Shown: one piece after another, positions 2,497-53,730 of the stretch
Numbering within the stretch: position 1 is the stretch's first letter
Layout of the letters: every line of letters begins with the position of its first letter
Source: Candidatus Babeliales bacterium
Lineage (GTDB): Bacteria; Babelota; Babeliae; Babelales; JBFXEV01
DNA: 64,000 nucleotides
Assembly (NCBI GenBank): GCA_050179755.1
Contig: JBFXEV010000001.1
Location: forward strand, 613,940 to 677,939
Direction: 5' to 3'
The notes under the pieces: generated by a model
The model's database searches: none
Told to the model about the DNA's origin: nothing
What the model saw: the letters and a program-made list of their open reading frames with translations, nothing else
Position numbers and translations under genes: made by a program

Positions 2497-2907
2497 ATGC
2501 AAAAAACAATTACGTTGTTTTTGGTGATGTGTGGTCAAATGTATGCAATGGAGAAAGAACAAACTCAACAACGAATCTCAATAATGGTAGCCGCCTGGGT
2601 GGTAACGCCCGACACACCGCTTAATGAAAAAAGTGAATTTCGTTTATTTCAGTTCCCCAATGGTTCACGCAAAATTACTTATACGTCCAGGCCTCAAGGG
2701 ATTTTTGAAAAGCCGTGTGATGTAAAAACAGTATTAGAATTGCCTGCATCAAGTGTGATCGACATACCCATTCATTTACATAGCTGTACAAAAGACTATT
2801 TAAAGCTAAGTGCACCACAAGACGTTCATTGGTATAAAAGTTCTATCGTAACTCATGGTGCAGCAGTATTGAGTACGATTCTTGTTATGGCTGCACTTTT
2901 TCATTAG
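2497..2907 (+). CDS. Small hypothetical exported/tail-anchored protein (136 aa)
   Basis: ATG 2497 follows AAAGGAG (2485-2491). N-terminus MQKTITLFLVMCGQMYA, C-terminal hydrophobic GAAVLSTILVMAALF. No family recognised. 23-nt convergent overlap with the symporter gene. Confidence 0.45.
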   Translation: MQKTITLFLVMCGQMYAMEKEQTQQRISIMVAAWVVTPDTPLNEKSEFRLFQFPNGSRKITYTSRPQGIFEKPCDVKTVLELPASSVIDIPIHLHSCTKDYLKLSAPQDVHWYKSSIVTHGAAVLSTILVMAALFH

Positions 2908-27165: not shown

Positions 27166-27179
27166 ATTTTTAACCTTTT

Positions 27180-28430
27180 TTATTTCTTGTTGCCGGTAGG
27201 AGCATTATTACTATTAGCTACTGTAGCAGTAGGTTGTTTATTTGTTGTAGGTGAGCGCCCCGCTTGTTGTTGTTGCGCTGCGGCCGCAGGTTGCGCAAGC
27301 CTTGCTGCAGCGGGTGATGCTTGAGCAGGTAATGCAGCAGCTTGCATGTGCGCTTGTTGAGCTTGTTGCGATTCAGCAATTAATTGAGCAGCAGCAGCTT
27401 TAGCAATTCCGGCAGCTTCAAGTTCTTGCACAAGAATTTGTTCTTGTTTTGCATTGTATGCTTGTACTACATTAAGTTCACGTTGCATACGCTCTAATTC
27501 TTGATTCTTGAGCGCTAATTCATGTTGTTCTGCTTGCAATGCTAATGCAGCACGTTCTTGCTCTGCTTTTTGTGCTGCAAGTTGGGCGCTTCGTAGTGCC
27601 AACTCGTCTAATTGTGGCTGCAATGTTTGCTCGTCTTTGGTGATAGCTTCTAGCGCAGCTTGCGCGCGGGTTGTTTTTAGTTTTATTCTTGCTTTGGCAT
27701 CTGCTACTTTTTTGCTATCTTCGCTTTTAGCATTGCCAAGCCTTTCAATATAATCACAACTTTCTGCGCTACTAAGCATTGCTTGTTCTAAAAATTTAAA
27801 TAATAGTTTTTGAGCAGTTGTTCCGAAAGTAACTTCGTCTGGTTGTTCTCGTAATGCTGATACAAGGTCATTTGCTTCAGTTATTTTGCCGGAGAGCACT
27901 ATTATTTCAGCAATTGTGTTTACTACCTCTTCTCGTAGATTAGCGTTACTAAGATAATTTAAGAAGGTGCGGTTGGTAATATCTGGTGCTAATTGGCTAG
28001 GGTAAATCCGATACATTGATTTAAGTGCTCTAAAAAATAAAACAGAGCGTGCATCAAGGGTGGATAGCCTTGTTTTTATGTGCTTATGAATTCTTTCAAG
28101 AACTAAAGTAGAAATAGGATATTGTGGTATAACGTCGTCAACAGCATCAAGTATATTGCTTGTTAACTGATTTTCTTTTAAATATCCTTTAGTAAATCCT
28201 CTATGCATCCTATGGAGTAACGTTTGTTTTCCGTTCTCACTAGCTTTATTCCAATCCCCTCTTCTTATTTCATCAAATATAGAAGTTGGATTCAATTTAT
28301 CAGCCGCTGAGTTATAGACGTTGCCTGCTGTACTCACCGCTAACTTTACAGTTCCAGTTACATAATCCATGGAAATAGCATTATGGAAAACGCCACACAA
28401 CAAGGCACATGTTGCTATTTTTTTAAACAT
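27180..28430 (-). CDS. Hypothetical exported coiled-coil protein with a Q/A-rich tail (416 aa)
   Basis: GGGGGA RBS. Signal MFKKIATCALLCGVFHNAIS. Long A/Q/E/L heptad region and a low-complexity AAAQQQQAGRSPTT tail. Confidence 0.6.
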   Translation of the reverse strand: MFKKIATCALLCGVFHNAISMDYVTGTVKLAVSTAGNVYNSAADKLNPTSIFDEIRRGDWNKASENGKQTLLHRMHRGFTKGYLKENQLTSNILDAVDDVIPQYPISTLVLERIHKHIKTRLSTLDARSVLFFRALKSMYRIYPSQLAPDITNRTFLNYLSNANLREEVVNTIAEIIVLSGKITEANDLVSALREQPDEVTFGTTAQKLLFKFLEQAMLSSAESCDYIERLGNAKSEDSKKVADAKARIKLKTTRAQAALEAITKDEQTLQPQLDELALRSAQLAAQKAEQERAALALQAEQHELALKNQELERMQRELNVVQAYNAKQEQILVQELEAAGIAKAAAAQLIAESQQAQQAHMQAAALPAQASPAAARLAQPAAAAQQQQAGRSPTTNKQPTATVANSNNAPTGNKK

Positions 28431-28476
28431 AATAATTCCCCCTTTTTTACTTGCTATAATATTCTTTTTTTATACT

Positions 28477-29424
28477 TTATTGCGCCATTTTAGATTTTTG
28501 ATACACATTCTCTTGATATAACCAACGTGCAAGGTTATCAAGAAACACGTCCACATTGATCACCGTTGTTTTTGGTCCAACTGTTTCAATTTTTAATTCT
28601 TTTGGCACAGCTGTTTTGATAACTGCATGTTGATATCCTACATAAGGTTGGTTAGAAATTGCAAGGATTGTGCCTTGTGGATTCATTTCTTTAAGCCAAA
28701 GCTTAATAGTATCACCAGTATTTGGGCGACGTGTGTTGCCATCGGCAGCTTGCTGCATTGGTGTATCGATAAAAAACATTTGTACCGATTCTTTAAATTC
28801 TTTTGGCAAATTTGCTTGATCAACAATCATTTTTGCAGCTTCTGTCTCAGTGGTGGGTGCAACGCTTGGTTCTTGCCAATCATTTCTTATAGGCAGTTGT
28901 GTATTTGATCTATCAAATAGTTCTACGAGTGATTCTTTTTGAGCATCTAACGGTCGCTGTCCTACCAAGAAAATGAGTTGTTTAAAGCGGATGCCTTTAT
29001 TCCACAGATCAAGTGCATATTGTAAGCGTGTACGCATGCTAGAAAGTGTTGCGCCAAGAATAATAACATCATTATATTCTTTTTGCGTCGGTTTTATCTC
29101 GTCAAATATATGCAATTCTTTAAAGTAAGGTTCTAATTGAGGTTTGAGCTCATCAAATTTTTGCTCTATTTGCCAACGTTCAACACCGGGTTTGCGTAAC
29201 CATGCTTGCTGCGTTGCTTGCACAACAGAATCTAAAGTTCCATCATGTTGCACATTAGTTATTTTGAGAATTTCATTAAGTGCTGGCGAAATCATAGTAT
29301 GTTGCAGTACATAATTTGTTAGATCAACGTAATGCTCTTTGGTATCGGATTTAAAGCAGCCTGATGAGCATGAAAGTATTGCGCAAGATAAAAATAATAA
29401 GTGAGAGAATTTAGATCTATGCAT
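28477..29424 (-). CDS. Lipoprotein, possibly DUF218/YdcF-like
   Basis: Lipobox LSCSSGC. Blocks DVIILGATLSSMRTRLQYALDLW, TETEAAKMI, RPNTGDT and ILAISNQPYVGYQHAV loosely follow the DUF218 pattern. The family call is tentative. Confidence 0.5.
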   Translation of the reverse strand: MHRSKFSHLLFLSCAILSCSSGCFKSDTKEHYVDLTNYVLQHTMISPALNEILKITNVQHDGTLDSVVQATQQAWLRKPGVERWQIEQKFDELKPQLEPYFKELHIFDEIKPTQKEYNDVIILGATLSSMRTRLQYALDLWNKGIRFKQLIFLVGQRPLDAQKESLVELFDRSNTQLPIRNDWQEPSVAPTTETEAAKMIVDQANLPKEFKESVQMFFIDTPMQQAADGNTRRPNTGDTIKLWLKEMNPQGTILAISNQPYVGYQHAVIKTAVPKELKIETVGPKTTVINVDVFLDNLARWLYQENVYQKSKMAQ

Positions 29425-30293: not shown

Positions 30294-32957
30294 TTAAACC
30301 GGCCCTACTTTGAATATGCTGAGGTTATCTCTGTTAAGCACTCGCTTAACGGCATCACGCACTTCTTGAACCGTAATTTTTTTGATTTCTTCTATGCGCG
30401 TTACTAAATAATCGTGCGGATATTTCCTTGCATTTAAATACAAGAAAGTACTTACAATGGATCCATTTGTTGAATATTGATCATTAAGGTCATTTGCCAT
30501 AGTTTGCTGCGCAAGCACTAAATCATCTTGAGTAAATTCATTTGCTAGTGTATCGATTGTATTAAGAATTAATTCTTGTGCTTCTTGAACCCGTGTTTGG
30601 GAAACTTGGGTTTTAATAAAGACTTCGCCAGGTTCTTGATTTGCCCCTTGTACAACTGAGCCACCAATCCAGTAAAATGCATTTGTTTTTTCTCGTAAAG
30701 CAAATAATTTATTGTTAAACACAACATCAAATAAAAGTAATGGGATATAATCTTTATGTTTGCTATTGACTGAAAGTCCAATAAAACCAAGCATGATTTG
30801 CTCACGTTCAATGTTATAGGTGATTTCTGTTTCAGTTTTTTTAACTTGGCCATTGAATAGCTTGCGGTCTTCAACTTTTGGCCCGTGCCATTTACCCAGA
30901 GTCTTTTCTAATACTTCAATTATATTGATACCAGATAAATCTCCTGCAATAGCAATAGTTGCACCGTTAGGACTACAATAATTGGTGTGGAACGCTTTAA
31001 TATCGTCAAGAGTAATACTTGCAATCGACTCGGGCGTTCCAATAGGATCTTGGAAGAATCCTGCTTCTTCATACAGATGTTTGCCCATCAAATAACACAT
31101 AATTGATTGTGGATCATCCCAGTAGTTTACATAATCGGTGAGCGCAAGTTGTTTTTGCTTTTCTAATTTTTCTTGTTCAAATAAGGGGTTGCAAATAATA
31201 TCAGTTAAAAGTTCAAATGCTTTTTGAGCTTCTTTGTTTAGCGTACTCATTCGATATGTTCCTGGAGAGATTGCAATACCTATGCCTCTTTTTTCAACCT
31301 CATTCCAGAGTAGTTCTTTTGGCCAATTTTTTGTACCTTCAAATAACATGGCAACATATAGTGCGTTCAAAGGTGATTTGTCTTTTGGTTGATAACCGCT
31401 ATCGAATTTTAGGTCCAACTGTACTTCAATCTGTGGTAAATTATCATTGTGATAGTAGAGTACCTTAAGGCCATTTGAAAGGGTGTGCACTCCAGGTTTT
31501 GGAATGGCAATGGCAATAGGTTCTTGTGCGATTACTGTGTGCACGTACTTACCTTGCTCTACAGGAGACTGGCGCATTTTATTTTGCGAGAGCAAAAGAT
31601 CTTCTTGATTTACTTTCTCTTGTAGTTCTTTCCAAATGGGTCGTTCCTCTTCCGGAAGAGGTAGCAGTGTGCCCATGTGCCTTACTGAGCTGCGCAAGTA
31701 TTTTTTAATAAAGGTTTGTATTTCTTGTTTAATGTGCGCATAATCGTGTCTTAAATATTCAAATACGCCATCTTCTTTTTTGGTTGTAAGATAATGTGAA
31801 GCAATAGAAGATGCTTGAGCATGATTATTTTCCAGCATTACATAAAAGCTTGCTTCAAACATGGTGATTACTTTTGAAATTTCTTCAATTGTAGGCCCTT
31901 CAGTTTGCAGTAGAGAAAGTTCTTGCTGAATACAAGCTATTATTTTTTCTACATCTTCTTGTTGGTTTGGTTCAAATCCTATAAGCAGTATATCATGATC
32001 ATGAAGTCTCCATGTGTTTGCACTGATTGAATGTATCAACTTTTGGTTCTCTACTAATTTTTTATATAATCGAGAATTTTGCCCGCTACATAAGATATTT
32101 AAAAAGACATCAAGCGCAATGCTAGAGTATTTTTTTGAACCCGGAACTTCATATGCTATAGCTACAACTGGCTTTTGCACATTTCGGTAGAGAGTTACTG
32201 ATTTTGAGCAAATATCTTCTTGGTGAGTACATTGTTTTTGTTTATATGAAAAATTCGGTTTTTTGTCGCCAAAGTGCTTAGTAACTTGTTTAAGAGCCTC
32301 TTTAGGGTCAATATTACCTACAATTACCAAAACGGCATTGTTGGGAATATAATGCTTTTTATAGAATGCTACCAGTTTTTCACGAGATAACGATTCTAAG
32401 TCTGATTGATAACCAATTATAGGATAATGATACGGGTGATCAGGGAAAACAGAAGCCATCAATGTTTGGCTTACTTGGATGCCATAATCGTCACGGCAAT
32501 TTTTCATTTCTTGAATGACCACTTGAAGCTCAGCGTTAAGTAAGTCTTGCTTAAAGGTGCAATTGGTCATAATATCAGAAAGAATAGGGAGTGCCTCAAA
32601 CCAATGTTGGGTCGGTAAGTCTAAATAAAAACGTGTGCGATCATAGCTTGTATCCGCATTAAAAGAACCTGAAAGCTTGTTAACCGTTAGGCGAATATCA
32701 GTTTCGGACATTTTCTGAGTACCCTTAAAGCACATGTGCTCAAGCCAATGAGCAAGGCCCTTTTCATCGTCAGCTTCATGCTTTGAACCTACATTTACCC
32801 AAAGTTGAGTGCTCACGTTTTGTGTAGTTTTTACCGGCCGAATTAAGACGGTCAGACCATTTTCAAGCACATGTTTTTGCACGTGCGTGCTCGCATTAAT
32901 GAATGTAATGCAGAGTAAAAGGTTCAATGAGACTAGGTTAATAAGTAGTTTTTGCAT
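30294..32957 (-). CDS. Secreted M16 (pitrilysin/insulinase) family zinc peptidase, tandem-domain, 887 aa (paralog a)
   Basis: Signal MQKLLINLVSLNLLLCITFINA. Inverted zinc motif GLAHWLEHMCFKGT. A second inactive-type M16 half. Confidence 0.88.
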   Translation of the reverse strand: MQKLLINLVSLNLLLCITFINASTHVQKHVLENGLTVLIRPVKTTQNVSTQLWVNVGSKHEADDEKGLAHWLEHMCFKGTQKMSETDIRLTVNKLSGSFNADTSYDRTRFYLDLPTQHWFEALPILSDIMTNCTFKQDLLNAELQVVIQEMKNCRDDYGIQVSQTLMASVFPDHPYHYPIIGYQSDLESLSREKLVAFYKKHYIPNNAVLVIVGNIDPKEALKQVTKHFGDKKPNFSYKQKQCTHQEDICSKSVTLYRNVQKPVVAIAYEVPGSKKYSSIALDVFLNILCSGQNSRLYKKLVENQKLIHSISANTWRLHDHDILLIGFEPNQQEDVEKIIACIQQELSLLQTEGPTIEEISKVITMFEASFYVMLENNHAQASSIASHYLTTKKEDGVFEYLRHDYAHIKQEIQTFIKKYLRSSVRHMGTLLPLPEEERPIWKELQEKVNQEDLLLSQNKMRQSPVEQGKYVHTVIAQEPIAIAIPKPGVHTLSNGLKVLYYHNDNLPQIEVQLDLKFDSGYQPKDKSPLNALYVAMLFEGTKNWPKELLWNEVEKRGIGIAISPGTYRMSTLNKEAQKAFELLTDIICNPLFEQEKLEKQKQLALTDYVNYWDDPQSIMCYLMGKHLYEEAGFFQDPIGTPESIASITLDDIKAFHTNYCSPNGATIAIAGDLSGINIIEVLEKTLGKWHGPKVEDRKLFNGQVKKTETEITYNIEREQIMLGFIGLSVNSKHKDYIPLLLFDVVFNNKLFALREKTNAFYWIGGSVVQGANQEPGEVFIKTQVSQTRVQEAQELILNTIDTLANEFTQDDLVLAQQTMANDLNDQYSTNGSIVSTFLYLNARKYPHDYLVTRIEEIKKITVQEVRDAVKRVLNRDNLSIFKVGPV

Positions 32958-34274: not shown

Positions 34275-36935
34275 TCAATTAACAGAACCTACTTTAAATA
34301 CGCTCATGTTCTTGGAATTAAATACCTTTTTTACCGCATCACGCACTTCTTGCACCGTGATCTTTTTAAGCTCATCAATACGCGTTACATAATAGTCATA
34401 CGGCAGTTCATAATCATGCAAAAAAGCAAACGAGCTTGCAATAGAATTATTGGTAGAATATTGATCATTAATAGTATTAATTAGGGCGTTTTGCGCATCA
34501 TAAAGATCATGCTCAGTAAACGAATCTGCCGCATGATCAATAAAATGTAAAATCATGTCTTGTGCTTCTTGTGCTCGCGTTTGAGAAACTTGCGTTTTAA
34601 TGACTGCATAACCAGGGCGTTTGGAAACGTTACTAATTACGGATCCTGCAATGCCATAAAAGGCATTACTTTGCTCGCGCAAGGTAAATAACTTTTTATT
34701 GAGCACTTGGTTAAACAGCGCCAGTGCGTGAAAATCTTTATGACGGCGATCAATTGATGGACCACATACTGCAAGCATTATTTGCTCACGTTCAATAGGG
34801 TGTAGTATTGTTTCTGGTTTATGTTTAGGTAACGTTTGATATGTGATATCTTTAACTCTTAGTCCCTGCCATTTGCCAAACGTATGCTCGACAATTTTTC
34901 GTAGGTTTAATCCATTCAAATCACCAACAATCACTAGTGTTGCACCTTGCGGGCTGTAATATTTGGCATGAAAATCATGGAGCATGTTGGGTGTTATGGC
35001 CGCAATGCTTTCTGGCGTGCCTAATGTGTTAGGGCATTGACCTTGCCACATATGCTTATCAATTAAATAATCTAAAATAGAATCTGGGTTATCCCAGAAC
35101 TTTTTATAGTAAGCAAGCACGTGCTGTTTAATTTTTTCTAAATTGTTAGTATCAAAACGGGGATTTGCAATAATATCTGTTGCCAGTTCCATGCTCATTG
35201 CAGCATTTTGTGTAAGCACGTTCATGGTAAATGAACCAATACCAGTGGTAACCCCTGCACCATAGCGCTCAAGTTCTTCCATGAGGTTTTTCTTGGAGCG
35301 TGTTTTGGTTCCTTCAAGAAGCATTGCATTAAGAATTGAGCAGAGACCGGGTGCTTTCTTGGGTTCATACCAACTATCAAATTTAAATTGTAAATTAATA
35401 GTTACTTTCGGGATATTATCATTATGATAATAGAGCACTTTAAGGCCATTGTCGAGCATAAATTCTTGCGGCACTGCAATATCATGCACGTTTGGTTCAC
35501 GCGCAATAACCTTATGCATATAGACCGGCGCTTCAACTGGTGATATCCGCTTTTTATCTTGCAATAATTGGGCATCTTCTTGGTTTGATTGTGTTTGCAA
35601 TTGCTTCCAAGTCTCATGCTCTTCAGGTGGTAACGGCATTAGCAAGCCGGTGTGCATTATTGAAGGCCGCAAATAATTGCATACCAGTTGTTGTATGTCA
35701 TGCATAATTGATGTTATAGTGCTCGTAAAATAATTAAAGAGCGCATCGTCATGCCCTGTTGCAAGATACAGGCGGCCAATAGTTTCTGCTTGACTGTGAT
35801 TTGATTCAAGCATATCAAAAAAACTTGATTGGATTTTTTGCACCGTCCATGCAACTTCATTTTGTGTTGGTCCATATATTTTTAAACGTTCAAGTTCATT
35901 CCAAATAATAGCATGAATTGTAGGTATTGTTGCCGCATCATGTGGTTCAAATATAATCCACAACGTATCAGCATCAAATAAGCCAAAAGAATGTACGCTT
36001 ATACTGGTAACAAGTTGTTCTTCATCAACTAATCTTTTGTATAAACGTGAATCTCTGCCACCCGCAAGAATACGTTCAAGCACTTCAAAGGCTATAGGTT
36101 GCCCTGCTTTTGCGCCCGGTATTTTAAATAGTGCAATGGCAGTGGGTTTTTGCACGTCGCGATAAAGTGTTATGTTTTTAGTTTCTATATCTGTGTGATT
36201 GCTCCATTCTTTTTGATGGTATGCCCAATTAGGCTGCATGTGGCCAAAAGTGGCGGTCGCGCGTTCAATAACATCATTAACTTCTACATTGCCAACTATC
36301 ACCAATACAGCGTTATTAGGTATATAATGTTTTTTATAGAATGCATATAATCTATCACGCGAGAGGGCTTGAAGATCTGATTTAAATCCAATTATAGGAT
36401 AATGGTACGGATGATCGGGGAATAATGCAGTTATCATTTCCATCATCAAATGGCGCAAAAAATTATCATGATGATTTTTCATTTCTTGAATCACCACTTG
36501 CACCTCAGCATTCAAAAGATCCTGTTTAAACGTGCAATTTTGCATCATATCTGCAAACATCGGGAGCGCCTCAAACCAATGTTGTGAGGGAAAATTTAAA
36601 AAATAGCGCGTATAATCGTAGCTGGTTGCTGCGTTAAAGGAGCCTGATAATTTTGCTGCAGTTAAGCGCACGTCAGTTTCACTCATATTGTCTGTGCCTT
36701 TAAAACACATGTGCTCAAGCCAATGCGCAAGTCCTTTTTCGGAGTCAGCTTCATGTTTGGAACCAACATTAAACCAAAGTTGCGTGCTTACTTTTTGTGC
36801 TGTTTTAACGGGGCGTACGAGAATGGTCATACCATTTTCAAGTACATGTTTGTGCACATGTTTACCAGCGGATGCTGTTAGAGCACACGCGAATAATGAT
36901 AGATATAAAAATAGGTGAATTAGCTTTTTATGCAT
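34275..36935 (-). CDS. Secreted M16 family zinc peptidase, 886 aa (paralog b)
   Basis: Signal MHKKLIHLFLYLSLFACALTASA. GLAHWLEHMCFKGT. N-terminal ~130 aa nearly collinear and highly similar to paralog a. Confidence 0.88.
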   Translation of the reverse strand: MHKKLIHLFLYLSLFACALTASAGKHVHKHVLENGMTILVRPVKTAQKVSTQLWFNVGSKHEADSEKGLAHWLEHMCFKGTDNMSETDVRLTAAKLSGSFNAATSYDYTRYFLNFPSQHWFEALPMFADMMQNCTFKQDLLNAEVQVVIQEMKNHHDNFLRHLMMEMITALFPDHPYHYPIIGFKSDLQALSRDRLYAFYKKHYIPNNAVLVIVGNVEVNDVIERATATFGHMQPNWAYHQKEWSNHTDIETKNITLYRDVQKPTAIALFKIPGAKAGQPIAFEVLERILAGGRDSRLYKRLVDEEQLVTSISVHSFGLFDADTLWIIFEPHDAATIPTIHAIIWNELERLKIYGPTQNEVAWTVQKIQSSFFDMLESNHSQAETIGRLYLATGHDDALFNYFTSTITSIMHDIQQLVCNYLRPSIMHTGLLMPLPPEEHETWKQLQTQSNQEDAQLLQDKKRISPVEAPVYMHKVIAREPNVHDIAVPQEFMLDNGLKVLYYHNDNIPKVTINLQFKFDSWYEPKKAPGLCSILNAMLLEGTKTRSKKNLMEELERYGAGVTTGIGSFTMNVLTQNAAMSMELATDIIANPRFDTNNLEKIKQHVLAYYKKFWDNPDSILDYLIDKHMWQGQCPNTLGTPESIAAITPNMLHDFHAKYYSPQGATLVIVGDLNGLNLRKIVEHTFGKWQGLRVKDITYQTLPKHKPETILHPIEREQIMLAVCGPSIDRRHKDFHALALFNQVLNKKLFTLREQSNAFYGIAGSVISNVSKRPGYAVIKTQVSQTRAQEAQDMILHFIDHAADSFTEHDLYDAQNALINTINDQYSTNNSIASSFAFLHDYELPYDYYVTRIDELKKITVQEVRDAVKKVFNSKNMSVFKVGSVN

Positions 36936-37009: not shown

Positions 37010-37036
37010 AAAAAAAAGGCTGCTTTTAAACAGCCC
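37010..37036 (-). terminator. Intrinsic terminator downstream of M16 paralog c
   Basis: On the minus-strand RNA: GGGCUG-UUUAAAAG-CAGCCU followed by a U7-8 run (the plus-strand A run at 37010-37017). Confidence 0.55.
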
Positions 37037-37041
37037 TATTA

Positions 37042-39681
37042 TTATTTTATTCTGCCAATTTTAATTTTTGCCAGTTTATTGCTATCCAAGAATTTCTTGC
37101 ACGTTGCAAGAACGTCTTGCTTAGTAATTTTTGCAAGATGTTGTGCACGCGTATCGTAATAATCCATAGGCAAATGATAGCGTTCTAAGAATAAAAATGT
37201 TGCTGCAATGCTGCGGTTGGCCTCAAAGTTATTAACCATTGAATTGGCAAGTGCGTTATACGCTTGCGCAAATTCTTCATCATCAATGGTATTGCATGCG
37301 GTATTGATTGTATGTTCAATCGCTTTTTCAGCTTCTTCCAGTCTATCGAGTGAGACAATAGTTTTTATAAATACCATGCCAGGTTGTTTGTCGCTGCTGG
37401 CAAGCAAGGACCCGCCAATAGTATAAAAGAGCCCGGATTGTTCACGCAGCTCAAATAACCGAGAACTCATAGAGCCCAGCACGCCACCGGTGAATATTTG
37501 ATTGAATAACAGTAACTTATCGTATTCTGGATCAAGGCGAGAAACAGAAAGCCCTGCATAGGTGAGCACTATTTGATCGCGATTGATCGGGTAATTAAGA
37601 ACCTCTTGTTTTTCTATTGGCGCAAGTGGAGGGAAAACAGTTTCTTTAACTTCAGGGCCCTGCCATGCGCCGAGTGTGCGTTCAAGCAAAGCTGGAATAT
37701 CGTAGCCAGATAAATCACCCACAATTGCCATTATTGTGCCTTTTGGTGTGATGGCTTGCTTATAACATTGATTAAGAAGTTCTTGATCAATATTTTTAAG
37801 TGATTCGGGGGTGCCCATTGCTTGTTTTGCGTAGGGGTGGTTTTTATAAATAATCTCTTGTGCAAGTTGTGATGCAAACTCAGAAGGCGTATCCCAAAAG
37901 TTTTTAATGCTTGCATATAATTGCGAGCGCACTTTATTGATCGCTTCTTTAGGGAAATTGGATTCCGTTAAAATTTCAAGTAATAACCCAAGCCCTTTTT
38001 CAAGATCTTGGCTTAACATATTCATATTAATAAGCCCTGGTGATGCGCCAAAACTCATGCCGTTACTTTCAATCACATTGGCAAGCTGTTCGCCAGTATG
38101 TTTTTTAGTACCTTCAGAAAGCATGGCACTCATAAACATGTTGAGGCCTTGCAAGTCTTCTGGGTCATAATAATATTTTGTCTTTAAATCCAGAAGTAAC
38201 TCAACCTTAGGGATGTTTGGGTTATGGTAAAATAATATTTTTAAACCATTAGGCAGTGTAATTGATTGAGGTTTAGGGAAGTTAAATGGTTTTGGTTTGT
38301 CAGTGCAAATAGTATGCACGTGCACACCTTTTTCTACTTCAACTTCGCGCTTTATGCGTGAGAGCACGCGGGCATCTTCTTGGTCGGAGCGGTCTTGAAA
38401 ATGATGCCACAGATCTTTATCTTGGTCTTTGAATGGCAGCACTACGCCCGTATGCTCAAGCGTTGGGCGCACGAAGAAATGTATAATTTCTTTAATATCT
38501 TTTTCAATTTCTTCTGGGCTTTCAGTGCCATACGTAAACATAAAATTGGGTTCACCAAGTGCCAAGTAAGTTTGGCCGATGATATATGCCTGCTTTTGTG
38601 TGTTTTCAAGCACGGATAAGTATTTAGTTTTGGCTTGTTTTATGGCGCGCTTAAGCTCATCTTGGCTAAAGCCGTTTTGCGCAATATCTTCTAGCTGGGC
38701 ATTGATGATATCAGTAATTTTTTGTATATCTTTTGCATCGTTTGGTTGAAAGTAAATAAAGAGTATGCCGCAATCAAATAAGTCATACGTAAAAGCTTCA
38801 AGCTCAGTGCATAATTGCATTTCGTGTATAAGTTTTTTTTGTAATCGTGAGCTTTTGCCAAGCCCAATTAGCCAGCATAAAACTTCTAAGGCAAAGTCTT
38901 TGCTTGAACGTGCTCCAGGAACGGTAAAAGCAAGCGCTGCAAACGGTTGCTGCACGTCACGATAGATGGTTACCGATTTGCCACCAATTTCTGGTGAAAA
39001 GTAAAATTCTTCTTTTTTGTAATCAAAGTTTGGCTTAATACAACCAAACTCTTTTTCAGCTTCGGCAAATACTTGCTCAGGATCAACGTCACCCACCACA
39101 ACGAGCGTTGCATTATTGGGTATATAATGCTCTTTATAAAATGCAATAAGTTGATCGCGCTTTAGATTCCAGAGATCTTGTTTAAAGCCAATAATAGGGT
39201 GTTGGTACGGATGGCCAGAGAAAATGGATCCGATCATATCTTCAATAAGTGATGAAGTATAGTCATCGCGGTACATTTTAAGTTCCTGAATAACTGCCTT
39301 AAGTTCAGAATTTAATAGTTCTTCTTTAAAGGTGCAATTGGCCATGCAATCTGCCATAATAGGCAATGCTTGCCGCCAATTTTGGCTTGGTAGATTAAAT
39401 AAGTAGCCAGTGTAATCAAATGAAGTAAAGGCGTTACAATCACCAGAAAGCTTGTTCACGATCATATTAATATCTGACTCTGATAGCTTTTTGGTGCCCT
39501 TAAAGATCATGTGCTCAATTAAATGCGCAATGCCCTTTTGGCCAGTTTTTTCATCTTTGGAGCCTACGTTATACCAAAGTTGGATTGAGACCTTAGGTAT
39601 GTTATGGGTAGGTCTGACAAGAACTGTCAGACCATTTTTTAATTTTTTCTCAAATACGTGATTAATAGAAGCGTGTGTCAT
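37042..39681 (-). CDS. M16 family zinc peptidase without a signal peptide, 879 aa (paralog c)
   Basis: Starts MTHASINHVFEKKLKNGLTVLVRP with no hydrophobic leader. GIAHLIEHMIFKGT. Same two-half architecture. Confidence 0.88.
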   Translation of the reverse strand: MTHASINHVFEKKLKNGLTVLVRPTHNIPKVSIQLWYNVGSKDEKTGQKGIAHLIEHMIFKGTKKLSESDINMIVNKLSGDCNAFTSFDYTGYLFNLPSQNWRQALPIMADCMANCTFKEELLNSELKAVIQELKMYRDDYTSSLIEDMIGSIFSGHPYQHPIIGFKQDLWNLKRDQLIAFYKEHYIPNNATLVVVGDVDPEQVFAEAEKEFGCIKPNFDYKKEEFYFSPEIGGKSVTIYRDVQQPFAALAFTVPGARSSKDFALEVLCWLIGLGKSSRLQKKLIHEMQLCTELEAFTYDLFDCGILFIYFQPNDAKDIQKITDIINAQLEDIAQNGFSQDELKRAIKQAKTKYLSVLENTQKQAYIIGQTYLALGEPNFMFTYGTESPEEIEKDIKEIIHFFVRPTLEHTGVVLPFKDQDKDLWHHFQDRSDQEDARVLSRIKREVEVEKGVHVHTICTDKPKPFNFPKPQSITLPNGLKILFYHNPNIPKVELLLDLKTKYYYDPEDLQGLNMFMSAMLSEGTKKHTGEQLANVIESNGMSFGASPGLINMNMLSQDLEKGLGLLLEILTESNFPKEAINKVRSQLYASIKNFWDTPSEFASQLAQEIIYKNHPYAKQAMGTPESLKNIDQELLNQCYKQAITPKGTIMAIVGDLSGYDIPALLERTLGAWQGPEVKETVFPPLAPIEKQEVLNYPINRDQIVLTYAGLSVSRLDPEYDKLLLFNQIFTGGVLGSMSSRLFELREQSGLFYTIGGSLLASSDKQPGMVFIKTIVSLDRLEEAEKAIEHTINTACNTIDDEEFAQAYNALANSMVNNFEANRSIAATFLFLERYHLPMDYYDTRAQHLAKITKQDVLATCKKFLDSNKLAKIKIGRIK

Positions 39682-39768: not shown

Positions 39769-41202
39769 TTAAAGTAAGCGTGCTTGCAGCCCATCGAGAG
39801 TTACTTGTAAATTTCTAAGCGCTTTCGCCAGTTTATCTTTTTGCTGATCAGCTTGCGCACGCCTTGCAGCTTCTTCTTGTTCGCGCTGGAGTTTTTCAGC
39901 TTGTGCTCGCTGTGCATTTTCTTCTTGAATCTGTTTCAGCCTTGCTTCTTGCTCTAGCCTAACCTTTTCTTGTTGGCGTTTTTTTGCCTCTTCTAATTCA
40001 CGTTTTGCTTTTGCTTCTAATTCTCGTTTGCGTTTTTCTTCTGCTTGTTTTAAACGCTCTTGTTCTAAACGCAGTGCTTCTTGTTGCTGACGTTGGCCAT
40101 TTGTGGGTTGCGGTGGGGTTATCACTGGTTGCGTAGCACCTATTCGCTGATAAAAAAGCATATAGCTTTGATGTATACTTTCTCTGCCATTTTCACCCAT
40201 TATTTCCATTTGGTTCCAGTCCACTTCTTGTACTCGACTATCGTTGCAATAGTACCAGGTGTTATTAGATCGCACGTATGCAATGTAATGCCCCGCTCGT
40301 AGCTCACCCATCTGAACAATTGCACCAATTAAACGATAGTTTGGAGCATTTGTTGTTGGTTTTGCCATATAGGGGCCAAAATTTACCACTTCCTCTACGG
40401 TGATATTTTGTTCTAATTTCTTAAGCTGCCCACTAAAAGGATCTTGCTCAAAGCGCTTGAGTGCTATTATGACTATTTCATTAAGATGATTTATGGCGAT
40501 TCTTCTGTTGCAATTAGGGATTTCTTTTCTGTTATGTTTCAAAAGATCTTGCCGTTGTGTTTTTTCAGCATCACTTAAGTCAAGGCGATAATAGTTATTA
40601 GGATCATTCAGTTGTTCTGTTTTAAAGAAATTTTGTAAACACGCTTTCACTGTAGTTAAATTGCCAACTTCAGGACTTATGAATAATTCATAGTCAACGC
40701 GTGTACGTTCAAAATTAATACTGGGGCAGGCTACAATACTTGCCTGTCCATAATTGAGTATTTTCCCAATAGGATGATCTCTCTTTAATCTGTTGGGATC
40801 ACGATATTGTGCTCCTTGAAAGCGTGGATCTTCTTCCATAAGAAAGTTAAGTATGCGGCTTACAAATTCATGTGCATCCTGGTGCCCGCAACCACCCATT
40901 ACTTTATATGCATGATCATGTATAAAGGTATAAAGTGATTGATTATTTTGCCCAAGATCGCGGCCTTTGTTCATTTCTTTCATTAATTGTACAAAGCTTG
41001 CACTAAAGCTATTTGCAGGGTAAGCAATATTTTGAGTGAGTAAATAGTTTCTGAGCGGCACAGTGTTATACAAATTTTGCAACGTAGCATTAACATAACA
41101 TGTAGCGCCAAAGTTATTAAGGCCAGGCGGCCGTGCACAAAAAAGAATGTGACTTGAACAGCATATAAGAGACGCTAATATAATATATTTTTTTAAAACC
41201 AT
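39769..41202 (-). CDS. Signal-peptide-bearing ubiquitin-specific protease (USP/UBP, peptidase C19) with a C-terminal coiled coil
   Basis: AAAGGAA RBS. Signal MVLKKYIILASLICCSSHILFCA. Cys box GLNNFGATCYVNATLQNL, then GHQDAHEF, then His box GHYIAYVRSNNTWYYCNDSRV, then YMLFYQR. About 110 aa of E/K/R/Q-rich tail. Confidence 0.85.
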   Translation of the reverse strand: MVLKKYIILASLICCSSHILFCARPPGLNNFGATCYVNATLQNLYNTVPLRNYLLTQNIAYPANSFSASFVQLMKEMNKGRDLGQNNQSLYTFIHDHAYKVMGGCGHQDAHEFVSRILNFLMEEDPRFQGAQYRDPNRLKRDHPIGKILNYGQASIVACPSINFERTRVDYELFISPEVGNLTTVKACLQNFFKTEQLNDPNNYYRLDLSDAEKTQRQDLLKHNRKEIPNCNRRIAINHLNEIVIIALKRFEQDPFSGQLKKLEQNITVEEVVNFGPYMAKPTTNAPNYRLIGAIVQMGELRAGHYIAYVRSNNTWYYCNDSRVQEVDWNQMEIMGENGRESIHQSYMLFYQRIGATQPVITPPQPTNGQRQQQEALRLEQERLKQAEEKRKRELEAKAKRELEEAKKRQQEKVRLEQEARLKQIQEENAQRAQAEKLQREQEEAARRAQADQQKDKLAKALRNLQVTLDGLQARLL

Positions 41203-43741: not shown

Positions 43742-44593
43742 TCAATGCCACGTCCCGGCATAGTAATGTATTGCCATCGTTTCTGGTTGAATAAGTATCT
43801 TATTTGACCAAGAAAAAAAGAAGTTACTAGGGAATATTATGTTTATTCCGGGGCATTCAGGCATATATGTATGGACCACACTGGTAAAAAAATCAGGCCC
43901 AACCCGATCTAATAAGTTGCTATTATTACGATAATTGGGAAGCTCCTCAATTATTTTTTGCATTAACGGGTGGTGTGGTGAACAGGCAATAATGCCATTT
44001 GCAAGACGCGCTTTATTTTTAAGCCGCTTGATTTCAAGAAGCCCTGCATAAAAATCACAATAATGATGTAGCCAATCAAATGGCTTAATACATTCAAAAT
44101 CTATATCAACGTAGAGGCCCCCAAATTGCTCTAATATTTCATAACGAAGAATGTCAGATTTTGCACCCCAATTTAATTCAAGATCGTAGTACTTTTGATT
44201 AATGAGTGTAATGTTTTTGAGATCCTCATTAGTCCATAATTTATATTCCCAATCAGGATTTAATTTTAACCAGCTTTTTTGCCATTTTTTGCAATGTTCA
44301 GGGAACGGTTTAGGGCCAATCCAAATTTGATGAATAATTTTTGGTATGCGGATTCTTTGATAATCTTCTTTATTAGAAACTATATGTTCTTGATATTGCT
44401 GCCGAAAAAATTCAAAAGGAATAGCTGCCGGATGACGTTTTGTGACGAGATTTTTATAAGTTTGTTCATCTATGCTGTGGCATACCATTGCTCTATCAAA
44501 AGATGGTATTTGTTGTTGTTTCTTGCTATTTGCTGATATCAGTGTGCAAAAAAAAAGGAAGAATGCTGTTTGTTTTTTTTTATTGAACTTCAT
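43742..44593 (-). CDS. Anchored GT32-type glycosyltransferase (Gly_transf_sug, DXD motif)
   Basis: MKFNKKKQTAFFLFFCTLISA leader. IPKIIHQIWIGPKPFP, NPDWEYKLWTNEDL, SDILRYEILEQFGGLYVDIDFE. Confidence 0.82.
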   Translation of the reverse strand: MKFNKKKQTAFFLFFCTLISANSKKQQQIPSFDRAMVCHSIDEQTYKNLVTKRHPAAIPFEFFRQQYQEHIVSNKEDYQRIRIPKIIHQIWIGPKPFPEHCKKWQKSWLKLNPDWEYKLWTNEDLKNITLINQKYYDLELNWGAKSDILRYEILEQFGGLYVDIDFECIKPFDWLHHYCDFYAGLLEIKRLKNKARLANGIIACSPHHPLMQKIIEELPNYRNNSNLLDRVGPDFFTSVVHTYMPECPGINIIFPSNFFFSWSNKILIQPETMAIHYYAGTWH

Positions 44594-48911: not shown

Positions 48912-49466
48912 ATGAATAAGCAAATTATGGCAGTAGTAATGTGTGCGGCAATCACTTTTTCCGGTGAAATTTCGGCTGCAAAGCAGCTTTATGATCAACA
49001 TGACCGTAAAGCAATAGAAACGTGGGTTGCAAATTATTACAAGTCACTTTCTTCTCAACAAAAACAAGCTATTCTTGCAATAAGTAAAGCAAATCTTAAA
49101 ATGCTTGAAACAAGTAAAATAGCCTTGCAACATCACTCCGCCAAGGAGTTATTCACCCCCGCAGAATTGAAACGTTTAATGCAATTCTGGACGCAAAGTG
49201 GTGAACTCATTAAAGACCAAGGAGCTCTTGAAGTCCTTGATGTCGCTTGTGCGCTGAATGCACTAACCCAATTAAGACTTAATTGGTTTAAAAAAATTGT
49301 AACAACTTATCAAAAAGAACCTGGAATGATGGAAAACATTGGTGCTTACTTTACAGAAAAAGGTAAATATAAACTGTATCGTGAACTAAATATGTTATTT
49401 AAATCAACAAAAGAAATAATTGAGCAATGTATGCTCTTTGAACAAGAATTGTTAAAATCGTTTTAA
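48912..49466 (+). CDS. Hypothetical exported helical protein (184 aa)
   Basis: GAGGAA RBS. Signal MNKQIMAVVMCAAITFSGEISA. No family recognised. Confidence 0.55.
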   Translation: MNKQIMAVVMCAAITFSGEISAAKQLYDQHDRKAIETWVANYYKSLSSQQKQAILAISKANLKMLETSKIALQHHSAKELFTPAELKRLMQFWTQSGELIKDQGALEVLDVACALNALTQLRLNWFKKIVTTYQKEPGMMENIGAYFTEKGKYKLYRELNMLFKSTKEIIEQCMLFEQELLKSF

Positions 49467-49476
49467 TTATAAAAAT

Positions 49477-50496
49477 ATGAAATATTACATGAAACATATA
49501 GGTAAAATATTGGTGGTTGCACTGTTATGTGCAACCACGTTTGTGCAAGCTGAAGTATCTGTGCAAGAAAAAATAAACAATAAACTTGAGCATTATATTG
49601 CTCCTGAGAATCAGGCAAAGTTTTTAGAGTTAGATGCTTTTTTGATTCATAATGGTGCTCCAGAGCAGCGTGCTTTAATGAATGAGATTGATAAAAATAT
49701 AGTTTTACTAGCGCGTACCTATCTCAATTTTTTTGATAATTTAATAATAAGCAATGAAGATTTAATTCTAGAAATAGGCCAAATCTGCAGTGAGGATAAT
49801 CCAGCTCATATAGATAGGGCACTTGAGCTAACAGGAACTTGTTTTGCTTTGGGTGACGTATTTAATGCGGTAGTTAAATGTGCCAATGATAAAGGAATGG
49901 CTGCAGTGGATACAAGAACGTTTACCACAAGCGGCCAATACATATGCTTTTTTGAAGAGTTAGTAGCATGCTCATGCGCTATATCTGAGTGTTTGGCTCG
50001 TGCGTGCGGAGAAAGTAAGCAACGAGTTTCTTTACATCCTTTATCTAGTGATGAATCAAATGAAATTATAAAAACATTTTCAGATCAGTTTAATGCACTC
50101 ACACTGCAAAGCCAGTTGTTACTCAAAAAAATTGTGCGTCCTCTTAATGATTGTATGCAACAAGCTAAAGAAATGCAGTTGACTTTATTTGATAAGTCTT
50201 TGTATTTTCTGGACATGATGAAGTTGCAGCAACAAATTGATTTTGACTCTGTTATACTGCAATTTTTCGCACATCGAGTTAACACACTTCAAAGAAGATA
50301 TGAATTCAATGAAGAATTATTAAAACTGACTCAAGAATATAATGAATTCAACAGAATTTTTAATAAGCCAAAGCAGGAAGATATAATGCAACTCCTGCAT
50401 ATGTGTAAGCGTGCGATGAAAATGACTCAAGAGTATTTGGAAACTGTTCTGCAAAAACTTGATACTGTTGAAACACAAATAGCCGTATTATCTTAG
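49477..50496 (+). CDS. Hypothetical exported helical protein (339 aa), paralog of 50624-51553
   Basis: Signal GKILVVALLCATTFVQA. The segment FLELDAFLIHNGAPEQRALMNEIDKNIVLLARTY aligns by eye with YFALENYLAHEASEDVRKMVRVLEQDTFKIMHMY of the next gene. Confidence 0.6.
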   Translation: MKYYMKHIGKILVVALLCATTFVQAEVSVQEKINNKLEHYIAPENQAKFLELDAFLIHNGAPEQRALMNEIDKNIVLLARTYLNFFDNLIISNEDLILEIGQICSEDNPAHIDRALELTGTCFALGDVFNAVVKCANDKGMAAVDTRTFTTSGQYICFFEELVACSCAISECLARACGESKQRVSLHPLSSDESNEIIKTFSDQFNALTLQSQLLLKKIVRPLNDCMQQAKEMQLTLFDKSLYFLDMMKLQQQIDFDSVILQFFAHRVNTLQRRYEFNEELLKLTQEYNEFNRIFNKPKQEDIMQLLHMCKRAMKMTQEYLETVLQKLDTVETQIAVLS

Positions 50497-50523
50497 TCGC
50501 GCATTAATAAATAATTTTTTATG

Positions 50524-50557
50524 GCCGGTATGATTTTCTTCATACCGGCTTTTTTTC
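50524..50557 (+). terminator. Rho-independent terminator
   Basis: Perfect 10-bp stem GCCGGTATGA/TCATACCGGC (50524-33 / 50540-49), 6-nt loop, then T7. Confidence 0.85.
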
Positions 50558-50623
50558 TGTAATCCTGCCCAATTTTCTGTTATGCTGATTCAATCTATTT
50601 AAATTAACATCAAAGGAGTCTGC

Positions 50624-51553
50624 ATGTTCACAAATGTAAAGTTTTTACTTTCTACTTTATTATTTACCATTTCTTTCATACAAGCTTATAGTCAGGACAT
50701 GTATTACCAAGACGAGCGTCTAGCAGAGTTTCGCAAGCAAGAAGAAGAGCGGTATTTTGCTCTGGAGAATTATTTAGCGCATGAAGCCTCAGAAGATGTA
50801 AGAAAAATGGTAAGAGTATTGGAGCAAGATACTTTTAAAATAATGCATATGTATGGTGAGATTATTGAAAGTTTAGTGATTAAAACACGCCCTTTAGTAG
50901 AAAAAGCTTGCGCCAATTCAGTAATGCCTGTTTTATCTATCACTGGTAGCATAGGTTCATTATGTATAGAAATTGATGATATTGCTAAAAAATATTTTTT
51001 TATTGAAGAAGAACGTGATTTAATGCAACAAGATGCTATAGAAGAGTTTATTGCTTATATTAATAATAGGCTTGAACAATTTTTTGCTTTGATTGATGGA
51101 CTGTCCAATCACGAAGGACATAGAAATGTTTCTTTGCTAACAATAGATAATGAACTTAAGAATTCAATATACGATCAATTTAATAATATTTTTTTAAAGA
51201 CAGATGCTTTAAGTCAACAAGTATTTAGTATTATGCTTCAAGAAATTAAAGAGTCAATTCCGTTATTACAGCATAGGTATAGTCAATTTTTGCATGATAT
51301 GCTTGTATTGAGAGAGCACGTTAATTGTGATTCAGAAACATTTGTGCTTTTTGTAGATTGTCGATTAGAAAGAATGGGTACCAAATTTAAAGAGTGTTTA
51401 TTTTATCAAGATGAAGAATATGCGAAATATTTTGACATCAGAGCGTTTGAAAATCTAACACCGCAAGATATAACATTATTATTTGCGATGTTTCTTAAAA
51501 ATGTAGATAGGTGTAAAGAAACAGCCTGGCAAGAATATAATAATCTAGTTTAA
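50624..51553 (+). CDS. Hypothetical exported helical protein (309 aa)
   Basis: AAAGGAG RBS. Signal MFTNVKFLLSTLLFTISFIQA. Paralogous to 49477-50496. Confidence 0.6.
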   Translation: MFTNVKFLLSTLLFTISFIQAYSQDMYYQDERLAEFRKQEEERYFALENYLAHEASEDVRKMVRVLEQDTFKIMHMYGEIIESLVIKTRPLVEKACANSVMPVLSITGSIGSLCIEIDDIAKKYFFIEEERDLMQQDAIEEFIAYINNRLEQFFALIDGLSNHEGHRNVSLLTIDNELKNSIYDQFNNIFLKTDALSQQVFSIMLQEIKESIPLLQHRYSQFLHDMLVLREHVNCDSETFVLFVDCRLERMGTKFKECLFYQDEEYAKYFDIRAFENLTPQDITLLFAMFLKNVDRCKETAWQEYNNLV

Positions 51554-52266: not shown

Positions 52267-53730
52267 ATGGTGAATAGTAAGAAATTAAGAATAGCTTCTC
52301 TGGTGATAGCATTCTCTGTAGTGGGAATAAGCATACAGGCTAATATAACCCTTGATCAAGTAAATATTGCTAAAGTACAACATAAACAAAATGTTATGCC
52401 AGTGGCCATTATTGGTGCTGGGCCTGCAGGTTTAAGCGCTGCCGTATATACTGCACGCAGTGGATTGCCAACGTATGTTTTTACTAATGATGCTCCTGGT
52501 GGCCATTTAATGGATATTAAGCAAATTGAAAATTGGCCCGCATTACCAAAAACATCTGGTGAAGATATTGCCAAAAAATTACAAGATCAAGCACTCAGTT
52601 TTGGTGCTCAGATGGTTAATGATGGCGTGGCCTCAGTAAATTTTGATGTGTATCCTTTTGAAATTAAAACTACTAATGATGAAACGGTGTATGCATTATC
52701 GGTGATTATTGCCACAGGGTTTATGCAAGAAAAGCTTGATATTCCTGGTGCGCAAAAATATTGGGGAAATGGTATAGGTTTATGTACCATTTGTGATGCG
52801 CCGTTTGCAGCTGGCCAAGATGTGGTAGTGGTGGGAGATGATGATTTTGCTGCAGAGCGTGTTATTCAATTGGCTGAATTTGCAAATAATGTGATCATGG
52901 TTACGCGTAAGAAAAAATTATCAGTTAATGCAACAACCATTGGCGATTTAAACCGTTTGAAAAATGCCGAACTTATTGTTGGGCATGAAGTTACCGAAGT
53001 AGAAGGTGACGGTTCACGTGTGACTGGCGTACGCTTGCGTAATTTAGAAGCCGGTAGTGAGCGAACTATTCCGGTTTCAACAGTTTATTTAAACAGCGTT
53101 TATAAACCAGACTCTGCATTTTTAAAAGGTCAAATTCCTATGGATGGAGAAGGTTATATTTTACGTCAGCCTGATTCACAACAAACACTTATTCCAAGCA
53201 TATTTGCAGCCGGTGCGGTTACCAATAAACCAAACAAAGCAGGTCCTTCGGCAGGTTTTGGTATGGCAGCGGCAGTAGAGCTTATTGAATTTATGCATAA
53301 AACTGTTGGTTTTAACTCAGAAGTGAGTAAGGATCTTGAGCAGTTATATTATAAATCACCACAAAAACGCAAAATGAGCAGTAGTGATCAAGTGACTTCA
53401 CGTACTCAACTTGCTGAAGTATTTAAGAAAAAACCAATTACCGTACTCTTTGCTTATTTACCAATGTGCCCATATTGCAGAGCTATGTATCCAGACATGC
53501 TTGACGCGGTACATGATTTTGGCGATGTTGTAACGCTTGTTAAATTAAATGCGAGTGAAAGCAATGATTTAACGCAGAACCTCACGTTTGATAGCGTACC
53601 AACAACGTTTATTTATAGAGATGGCGTGTTAGTGCATACTATCCGCGGCAGAGCAAATAAATTAGCAATCTCTAAAGTGCTTTCAAGCATTGCTGAGCAA
53701 GTGAAATCAGATAAAGAGGCTGCCAAGTAA
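52267..53730 (+). CDS. Thioredoxin-reductase-like flavoprotein fused to a C-terminal thioredoxin-fold domain, with an N-terminal signal/anchor
   Basis: AAGAGGGAG RBS. LRIASLVIAFSVVGISIQA leader. FAD motif VAIIGAGPAGLSAAVY. Redox CTIC (GLCTICDA). The second Rossmann motif is degenerate (VVVVGDDDFAAE). The C-terminal domain carries CPYC (LPMCPYCRAM). Confidence 0.8.
   Translation: MVNSKKLRIASLVIAFSVVGISIQANITLDQVNIAKVQHKQNVMPVAIIGAGPAGLSAAVYTARSGLPTYVFTNDAPGGHLMDIKQIENWPALPKTSGEDIAKKLQDQALSFGAQMVNDGVASVNFDVYPFEIKTTNDETVYALSVIIATGFMQEKLDIPGAQKYWGNGIGLCTICDAPFAAGQDVVVVGDDDFAAERVIQLAEFANNVIMVTRKKKLSVNATTIGDLNRLKNAELIVGHEVTEVEGDGSRVTGVRLRNLEAGSERTIPVSTVYLNSVYKPDSAFLKGQIPMDGEGYILRQPDSQQTLIPSIFAAGAVTNKPNKAGPSAGFGMAAAVELIEFMHKTVGFNSEVSKDLEQLYYKSPQKRKMSSSDQVTSRTQLAEVFKKKPITVLFAYLPMCPYCRAMYPDMLDAVHDFGDVVTLVKLNASESNDLTQNLTFDSVPTTFIYRDGVLVHTIRGRANKLAISKVLSSIAEQVKSDKEAAK

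Follow-up and report, generated by a model that had tools for sequence, protein, structure and literature searches.

The 64-kb stretch of DNA analysed here, referred to below as the window, belongs to contig JBFXEV010000001.1 of a Candidatus Babeliales bacterium and carries on its minus strand a gene for a ubiquitin-specific protease (USP, peptidase C19) with a hydrophobic leader and a long charged tail ending in a leucine zipper. The open reading frame (ORF) at 39769..41202 begins with ATG, contains no introns and encodes 477 amino acids (aa) followed by a stop codon; an AAGGA Shine-Dalgarno-like motif lies 7-11 nt 5' of the start. An identical protein is deposited as AB7F19_04490, a hypothetical protein on a 1.53-Mb contig of a Candidatus Babeliales metagenome-assembled genome (MAG). 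The Babeliales fall within the Dependentiae (TM6), and those members that have been cultivated parasitise amoebae and flagellates as obligate intracellular organisms (PMC4378268, PMC6561590). We consider it probable that the gene encodes a catalytically competent, exported and host-directed USP deubiquitinase of obligate intracellular Babeliales, with type II release, a spacer-zipper tail and an ancient eukaryotic origin. The features of the gene are listed below.

39769..41202, minus strand: whole coding sequence (CDS) of the putative exported USP-family (C19) deubiquitinase, from the ORF and the identical MAG protein
41134..41202, minus strand: predicted Sec-type leader MVLKKYIILASLICCSSHILFCA, residues 1-23, from the sequence and a model helix at 2-21
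40138..41130, minus strand: USP catalytic domain (Thumb, Fingers and Palm), residues 25-355, from Pfam, the AlphaFold2 model and Foldseek
41098..41100, minus strand: codon of the catalytic Cys35, with the oxyanion Asn30 five residues upstream, from the USP36 Cys-box alignment
40453..40755, minus strand: Fingers subdomain, residues ~150-250, from model strands 151-159, 164-172, 231-240 and 243-247
40288..40290, minus strand: codon of the catalytic His305, followed by the aromatic gatekeeper Tyr306, from the USP36 GHY alignment
40240..40245, minus strand: codons of Asn320-Asp321 (NDS motif), from the USP36 NDS alignment
40102..40137, minus strand: P/Q/T-rich hinge ATQPVITPPQPT, residues 356-367, where the predicted local distance difference test score (pLDDT) falls to 61-78
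39832..40101, minus strand: ER/K-type charged helix, residues 368-457, from composition, a heptad scan and a model helix
39772..39831, minus strand: C-terminal leucine zipper LAKALRNLQVTLDGLQARLL, residues 458-477, with the spacing L-x3-L-x2-L-x3-L-x2-L-x3-L

An earlier reading of the same DNA, made without database searches (the sequence-only reading), had described a 477-aa product with the USP blocks in canonical order, and all of them are present in that order: the Cys box GLNNFGATCYVNATLQNL (residues 27-44), which contains GLNNFGATCY with Cys35, the GHQDAHEF block GHQDAHEFVSRILNFL (residues 106-121), the His box GHYIAYVRSNNTWYYCNDSRV (residues 304-324, with G304-H305-Y306 and N320-D321-S322) and YMLFYQR (residues 347-353). 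The profile match expected from that description was found, PF00443 (UCH) scoring 135.9 bits against a cutoff of 23.9 (E 2.4e-39) and aligning in one stretch, without a gap, from profile position 2 to 254 of 254 over residues 27-351. A sequence search of the PDB returned USPs only, with USP36 at the top (E 2.4e-18), and the Cys box, QDAHEF, GHY and NDS of USP36 align residue for residue with the window protein; Asn320 is presumed from this alignment to be the third member of the catalytic triad. Among 44 relatives of 24-60% identity, residues N30, C35, N38, Q42, D109, H305, Y306, W316, D321, Y347 and Y351 are invariant and C319 is nearly so, and such invariance of the active site at this level of divergence argues for purifying selection on catalysis. 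The NCBIfam models gave only spurious sub-threshold matches (TolA and Fis), that to TolA lying on the charged tail.

The AlphaFold2 model, built from the 44-sequence family alignment, has a mean pLDDT of 92.2 and a predicted TM-score (pTM) of 0.74, with pLDDT above 90 over most of the USP domain. It lays out the protein as a leader helix (2-21), a mixed alpha/beta domain (25-355), a low-confidence hinge (~356-367) and an unbroken helix (368-476). Foldseek searches against the PDB placed the model beside USP4, USP2, USP12, USP46, USP36, Ubp8, USP15 and USP21 (E 1e-24 to 1e-26), with target-normalised TM-scores of 0.82 to USP36 and 0.84 to USP12 and USP46; superposition on the USP36-Fubi structure gave a root-mean-square deviation of 3.1 Å over 341 columns. 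The USP fold proposed from the sequence is thus borne out by a model that superposes on full catalytic domains, and because these targets are complete, the Fingers subdomain is predicted to be present. Profile match and modelled fold together confirm the assignment to the USP (peptidase C19) family. In the model the tip of the Fingers is remodelled: a helical insert stands at ~205-228 (model helices 211-216 and 218-223), and there are no CxxC zinc knuckles at the tip, the only cysteines in residues 150-250 being C159, C188 and C231. A zinc ribbon is common in USPs and does not define them; an intact zinc site is also absent from certain active enzymes of the family, USP7 among them, so the loss is no bar to USP membership. 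A C159-C231 disulfide in place of the lost zinc site was considered and dropped; simple residue counting puts C231 outside the zinc-knuckle position. Giant-virus USPs matched the model as well as cellular ones in Foldseek, at identities of at most 23%; with sequences no closer than those of cellular USPs, no special kinship to the viral enzymes was found.

Relatives were collected by an exhaustive HMMER search over 1.84 billion cluster representatives, which gave 7477 USP matches, 16 of them at E 1e-30 or better. The family sample consisted of the 150 best-scoring of these 7477 matches and nine further homologues; 83 of its members are short (at most 650 aa) and have a hydrophobic N-terminal leader. 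Three giant multi-USP sequences with long eukaryote-type N-termini and no leader (P0012, P0014 and P0016) were set aside and taken as merged calls on tandem arrays. A word-indexed profile search gave 11 matches and little gain, the low-complexity tail having probably swamped the candidates. A scan of contigs with patterns taken from the single protein found no relative, as the patterns came from non-conserved stretches; usable patterns came from an 8-sequence alignment, the 44-sequence alignment being too diverse to yield any.

In a neighbour-joining tree of 141 USP domains (100 bootstraps), all 79 leader-type domains fall in one clade of 92 members, recovered with a Jaccard index of at least 0.95 in 77 of the 100 bootstraps; the other clade members mostly have leaders slightly below threshold or are fragments. 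The family architecture consists of a leader, the USP domain, a spacer of 2-250 aa and a 19-aa C-terminal leucine zipper. Every family member with a named organism is from the Babeliales. More distant members are flanked by bacterial genes (UvrC, ClpB, MreB, LspA, MurB and TamB) and lie beside ankyrin genes. Other architectures are found in the USPs of Puniceicoccales, Chlamydiae, Legionellales and another TM6 genome. Contigs L005, L006 and L011, from Puniceicoccales MAGs (related to Verrucomicrobia), have two or three adjacent USP genes; at the matched position in L005 and L006 the USP frame opens with an N-terminal leader, and a long basic spacer comes next. No zipper is present in the USP ORFs examined from these three contigs, and they represent a separate bacterial USP architecture.

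The leader, which the sequence-only reading had already described as Sec-type and abutting the Cys box, shows Sec-like n- and h-regions, with K4 and K5 in the former and IILASLICC as the latter, and the same placement recurs in at least 75 related proteins. Uncharged residues extend over 18 positions (Y6-A23), and the putative cleavage site follows Ala23 (Ala23 at -1, Phe21 at -3). No lipobox precedes Cys14, Cys15 or Cys22, so that a lipoprotein was rejected. In 75 family members aligned on the catalytic Cys, which mostly stands at residues 28-36, a K or R occurs within the first 8 aa in 67 and the median uncharged run is 17 aa. Upstream of the nucleophile, Pro is found at Cys-10 in 72/75, Leu at Cys-7 in 67/75 and Asn at Cys-5 in 74/75, while Ala or Ser occupies Cys-12 in 35/75 and is followed by Q/K-P-P, a pattern resembling the c-region read by signal peptidase. 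The position of the catalytic Cys indicates that across the family the leader ends about 10-11 residues before the nucleophile.

The tail had been described as one long coiled coil. It is indeed helical and rich in E/K/R/Q, whereas a coiled coil over most of its length did not stand up, and the tail proves to be two elements, of which the terminal zipper had been missed. Residues 368-457 are 86% E/K/R/Q/A/D and 11% hydrophobic, with 28 opposite-charge i/i+4 pairs in 90 residues; even in the best heptad register just 4 of the 26 a/d positions are hydrophobic, and without a heptad seam a classical coiled coil is ruled out for this segment. Its composition and modelled helix are the signature of a spacer of the ER/K single alpha-helix type. 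Residues 458-477, by comparison, carry Leu at all six a/d positions, running to the C-terminus. With 42 relatives in register, the first five of these positions hold Leu in 34-41 of the 42 and the sixth in 28, six sequences having already ended there, and the residues between the leucines are polar and variable. A looser pattern (five successive a/d positions within the last 32 residues, each filled by any of L/I/V/M/F) was found in 53 of the 92 clade members; of the 49 other USPs a single one showed it, as a false positive. The spacer between USP domain and zipper varies among relatives from 2 to 250 aa (median 26) and is either P/Q-rich or E/K-rich; such variation in length and composition is the behaviour of a spacer.

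A hidden Markov model (HMM) made from the 42 zippers was run on 1015 ORFs (at least 50 codons, stop to stop) from the window and L001-L012. It matched USP ORFs only, and the zipper as a general Babeliales sorting signal was rejected on this small sample. The looser pattern, unlike the HMM, also picks the leader-bearing ORFan at 49477-50496. The zipper has no match in Pfam or the PDB, and in the literature searched no such zipper-spacer module is described for any bacterial or eukaryotic USP. All-Leu a/d cores reportedly tend to form trimers, according to the GCN4 core-variant work of Harbury et al. from 1993. The spacing L-x2-L-x3-L-x2-L fits the loose class-3 nuclear-export-signal pattern, as does any leucine heptad.

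The USP gene starts 29 nt 3' of a family 2 glycosyltransferase (GT2) gene and ends 87 nt 5' of a tandem array of three M16 peptidase paralogues; all these genes share one strand, and the order glycosyltransferase-USP-M16 peptidase is repeated in two other contigs (L001 and L002). In L004, a Babeliales chromosome, glycosyltransferase genes precede a tandem USP pair, so that the flanking agrees on one side. A GT2-USP-M16 operon is possible and unproven; promoter and terminator scans gave background levels only, and the sole suggestive site is a terminator-like hairpin at 37016-37037, after the M16 gene. The GC content of the USP gene (0.391) equals the mean of 16 CDS of the window (0.391, standard deviation 0.030). 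The gene content of the window is bacterial, with RuvA, MnmE, RNase G, GatB, SHMT, ribosomal protein S1, a DEAD-box helicase and a tRNA, and many leader-bearing ankyrin, tetratricopeptide-repeat (TPR) and orphan proteins are scattered among these housekeeping genes.

The best reading of the origin of the gene is eukaryotic: it would go back to a eukaryotic USP acquired in the distant past, which later diversified in this bacterial lineage. The transfer from eukaryote to bacterium that the sequence-only reading proposed is therefore supported, with the qualification that it is old and not recent, as indicated by a GC content equal to the local CDS mean, the conserved gene order and the depth of the clade. 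The eukaryotic and giant-virus USPs retrieved by structure are at most 24% identical. That the gene is instead a eukaryotic contaminant, or a very recent transfer without a settled bacterial role, might be suggested by a family that is overwhelmingly eukaryotic and by a source genome assembled from a metagenome. Against this stand its position within 64 kb of bacterial genes on a 1.53-Mb contig, the matching GC content, the Shine-Dalgarno-like motif and absence of introns, and the bacterial-type clade formed by relatives of 24-60% identity. Bacterial neighbours, the gene order shared with other Babeliales contigs and the GC content together exclude both versions of this explanation, to which we assign practically no probability.

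A host-directed function is the best reading, and the proposal that the enzyme manipulates host ubiquitin gains support from its source in the obligate intracellular Babeliales and from its place among bacterial housekeeping genes. The leader would direct Sec-dependent export and be cleaved at about Ala23|Arg24, so that the mature enzyme would begin some 11 residues before the catalytic Cys. Cleavage is favoured by the Ala/Ser then Q/K-P-P pattern of the family and by the steric problem that a USP strand 3 residues from the membrane would pose. The folded protein would then most plausibly leave the bacterium by type II secretion, with outer-membrane vesicles as the alternative route. Type II secretion is preferred because it is the sole system for secretion that was found in Babela massiliensis (PMC4378268), is conserved across TM6 genomes (PMC4776705) and is the route of TssM, a proven bacterial USP (PMC10719079). 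Signal peptides occur on 79 of 126 ankyrin-repeat proteins of Babela, which are thought to be secreted (PMC4378268), and in Chromulinavorax on 78% of ankyrin-repeat proteins and on 44% of all CDS, likewise thought to be secreted; the release of vesicles is also described for the latter organism (PMC6561590). In the host, the enzyme may strip ubiquitin, or a modifier closely resembling it, off host proteins or off the bacterium's own surface or compartment, and removal of ubiquitin would blunt ubiquitin-dependent degradation and xenophagy. The 90-residue ER/K helix would serve as a semi-rigid spacer, and the terminal 19-residue zipper as a docking or oligomerisation module that fixes the site of action of the enzyme.

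Several points weigh against this interpretation. Phe at -3 is unfavourable for signal peptidase I, and the c-region of the window protein is weak. The 64-kb window contains no type II secretion genes, and relatives are the basis for assuming that the genome has them; a type II substrate would also have to pass a vacuolar membrane of the host, should one exist. The Cys-His-Asn geometry is read from residue alignment and global superposition, the role given to the zipper is conjecture, and the activity of any Dependentiae USP is a prediction. The modifier removed may be ubiquitin, NEDD8, SUMO or a Fubi-like one, the best-scoring solved relative, USP36, acting also on Fubi.

These points leave room for two other accounts of the protein. 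One holds that the hydrophobic N-terminus is an uncleaved signal anchor, leaving the USP on the inner membrane in the periplasm or in vesicles, where it would act on a bacterial substrate other than ubiquitin, or only after vesicle delivery. The 18-residue uncharged stretch and Phe at -3 agree with an anchor, as do the hydrophobic regions of the Simkania USPs, thought to mediate membrane attachment (PMC10643670), and the vesicle release of Chromulinavorax (PMC6561590). The hydrophobic core is, however, broken by Ser-Ser-His after about 10 residues, and the relatives with Ala or Ser at Cys-12 before Q/K-P-P look like substrates with a c-region. Without cleavage, moreover, the first USP strand would stand about 3 residues from the membrane, an awkward position for gripping a 76-residue substrate, and the periplasm has no known GlyGly-conjugated substrate; we hold the anchor to be improbable. 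The other account makes a ubiquitin-like modifier of the host (NEDD8, SUMO, Fubi or one like ISG15), and not ubiquitin, the specific target of the enzyme. The QDAHEF motif, which in USP7 grips the C-terminal Arg72-Arg74 tail of ubiquitin, is present here, with Asp109 invariant in the family; Glu112 of the motif is present in the window protein and replaced in two close homologues. In favour of such specificity, the best PDB sequence match, USP36, was solved with Fubi, and the tip of the Fingers, where contact with the modifier's body is made, is altered by the loss of zinc knuckles and by the helical insert; SnUSP2 of Simkania reacts with an ISG15 probe too (PMC10643670) and TssM cross-reacts with NEDD8 (PMC10719079). 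Most USPs, including the bacterial ones tested, nevertheless prefer ubiquitin, and exclusive specificity for another modifier seems to us unlikely.

Within the preferred reading of an exported, host-directed deubiquitinase, the tail invites one further, speculative idea, which we think rather unlikely. Zipper and spacer could form a tether, the zipper docking the enzyme on the bacterial surface or vacuole, or on a host coiled-coil protein, and the spacer setting the radius of deubiquitination. The ER/K helix would here span ~13 nm (at a rise of 0.15 nm per residue). If the idea holds, the protein would be a 'deubiquitinase on a leash' that guards the symbiont.

The idea of an exported, host-directed deubiquitinase is not new in this phylum. 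Pagnier et al. reported in 2015 that Babela massiliensis encodes three secreted C19 hydrolases (PMC4378268), which resemble the window protein in belonging to the Dependentiae/TM6 and to C19, in their predicted signal peptide and in having been read as tools that exploit host ubiquitin. They are known from genome annotation only, without architecture, structure or activity; the comparison made here is one of descriptions. The leader-USP-spacer-zipper arrangement is an elaboration and not a new principle, and it is the architecture and the size of the clade that appear to be undescribed. The literature search turned up no paper that brings together Babela or Babeliales and deubiquitinases or USPs.

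Burkholderia TssM (Hermanns et al. 2023, PMC10719079) is another bacterial USP effector, which relies on a Sec leader and on type II secretion and acts in the host cytosol. In related work, TssM is reported to strip ubiquitin off ubiquitylated lipopolysaccharide at the bacterial surface. TssM differs in being fingerless, with a Littlefinger loop and an N-terminal Ig-like domain (PMC10719079), whereas the window protein has complete Fingers, matches the whole Pfam profile, starts its domain at residue 25 without an Ig domain and continues into an ER/K spacer and zipper. The same paper calls TssM the only described bacterial USP (PMC10719079), which indicates how little the Dependentiae genes have been noticed. 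The three proteins SnUSP1-3 of Simkania negevensis, a bacterium that grows in amoebae, likewise keep a whole USP domain with its active-site residues and have demonstrated deubiquitinase activity; they are large, however, with N-terminal extensions (catalytic Cys at 101-209) and hydrophobic regions (PMC10643670). The Chlamydiae relative found in the present work has neither a leader abutting the domain nor a zipper. Chlamydiae secrete effectors by type III secretion. Eukaryotic USPs (USP36, USP12/46, USP2 and USP4) and those of giant viruses share the fold and catalytic motifs at 19-24% identity in the structure-search matches; the eukaryotic enzymes are cytosolic or nuclear, have no signal peptide and usually carry zinc knuckles in the Fingers. 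In view of the secreted C19 proteins of Babela (PMC4378268) and the active TssM (PMC10719079) and SnUSP1-3 (PMC10643670), the sequence-only reading had overstated how unusual a bacterial USP is.

The Dependentiae are widespread and almost uncultured parasites of protists, and their handling of host defences is largely inferred from genomes. The window protein, compact (330 residues plus the tail) and with a high-confidence model, is a candidate for showing that they secrete active deubiquitinases. To the short list of bacterial USPs (TssM and SnUSP1-3) it would add a Fingers-containing, Sec-leader type from a large metagenomic clade. The conserved zipper on its variable spacer offers a handle for finding a binding partner and could show where ubiquitin is removed during infection.

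The USP gene is duplicated in tandem in two of the related loci. At 6678-8020 in L001 the upstream copy is broken into two products (248 and 177 aa) and is probably a frameshifted pseudogene; at 3977-6665 in L004 both copies are intact and each ends in a zipper. On the 3' side of the gene in the window, the three tandem M16 (insulinase/pitrilysin) paralogues (30294-32957, 34275-36935 and 37042-39681, all on the minus strand) are ~880 aa long and each a double M16; two of them have an N-terminal leader, and the copy adjoining the USP gene has none. The pairing is conserved, as L001 and L002 likewise have an M16 gene 3' of their USP gene.

A leader-bearing glycosyltransferase at 43742-44593 (minus strand) has a DXD sugar-binding region and weakly matches the catalytic domain of TcdA/TcdB; it is part of a gene cluster next to the USP gene that also contains GT2, methyltransferase and flippase genes. 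Similar leader-bearing TcdA/TcdB-like glycosyltransferases occur at 2672-4165 and 5715-7823 in L002. These enzymes could have host targets, by analogy with the large clostridial toxins and the Legionella glucosyltransferases, or could belong to ordinary surface-glycan biosynthesis.

Other leader-bearing proteins of the window include five consecutive TPR-repeat proteins at 16391-22446 (minus strand), one with a DUF5092 match, an ankyrin protein at 25552-26535 and orphans at 26539-29424. The TPR, orphan and ankyrin proteins with leaders fit the large predicted secretomes reported for Dependentiae. At 52267-53730 (plus strand) a 487-aa fusion of a thioredoxin-reductase-like Pyr_redox_2 domain and a thioredoxin domain has a signal-like start, MVNSKKLRIASLVIAFSVVGISIQA; an exported flavoprotein disulfide reductase would be odd. 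Three leader-bearing orphan ORFs follow one another at 48912-51553 (plus strand), the middle one (49477-50496) ending in a hydrophobic, heptad-like sequence, YLETVLQKLDTVETQIAVLS.

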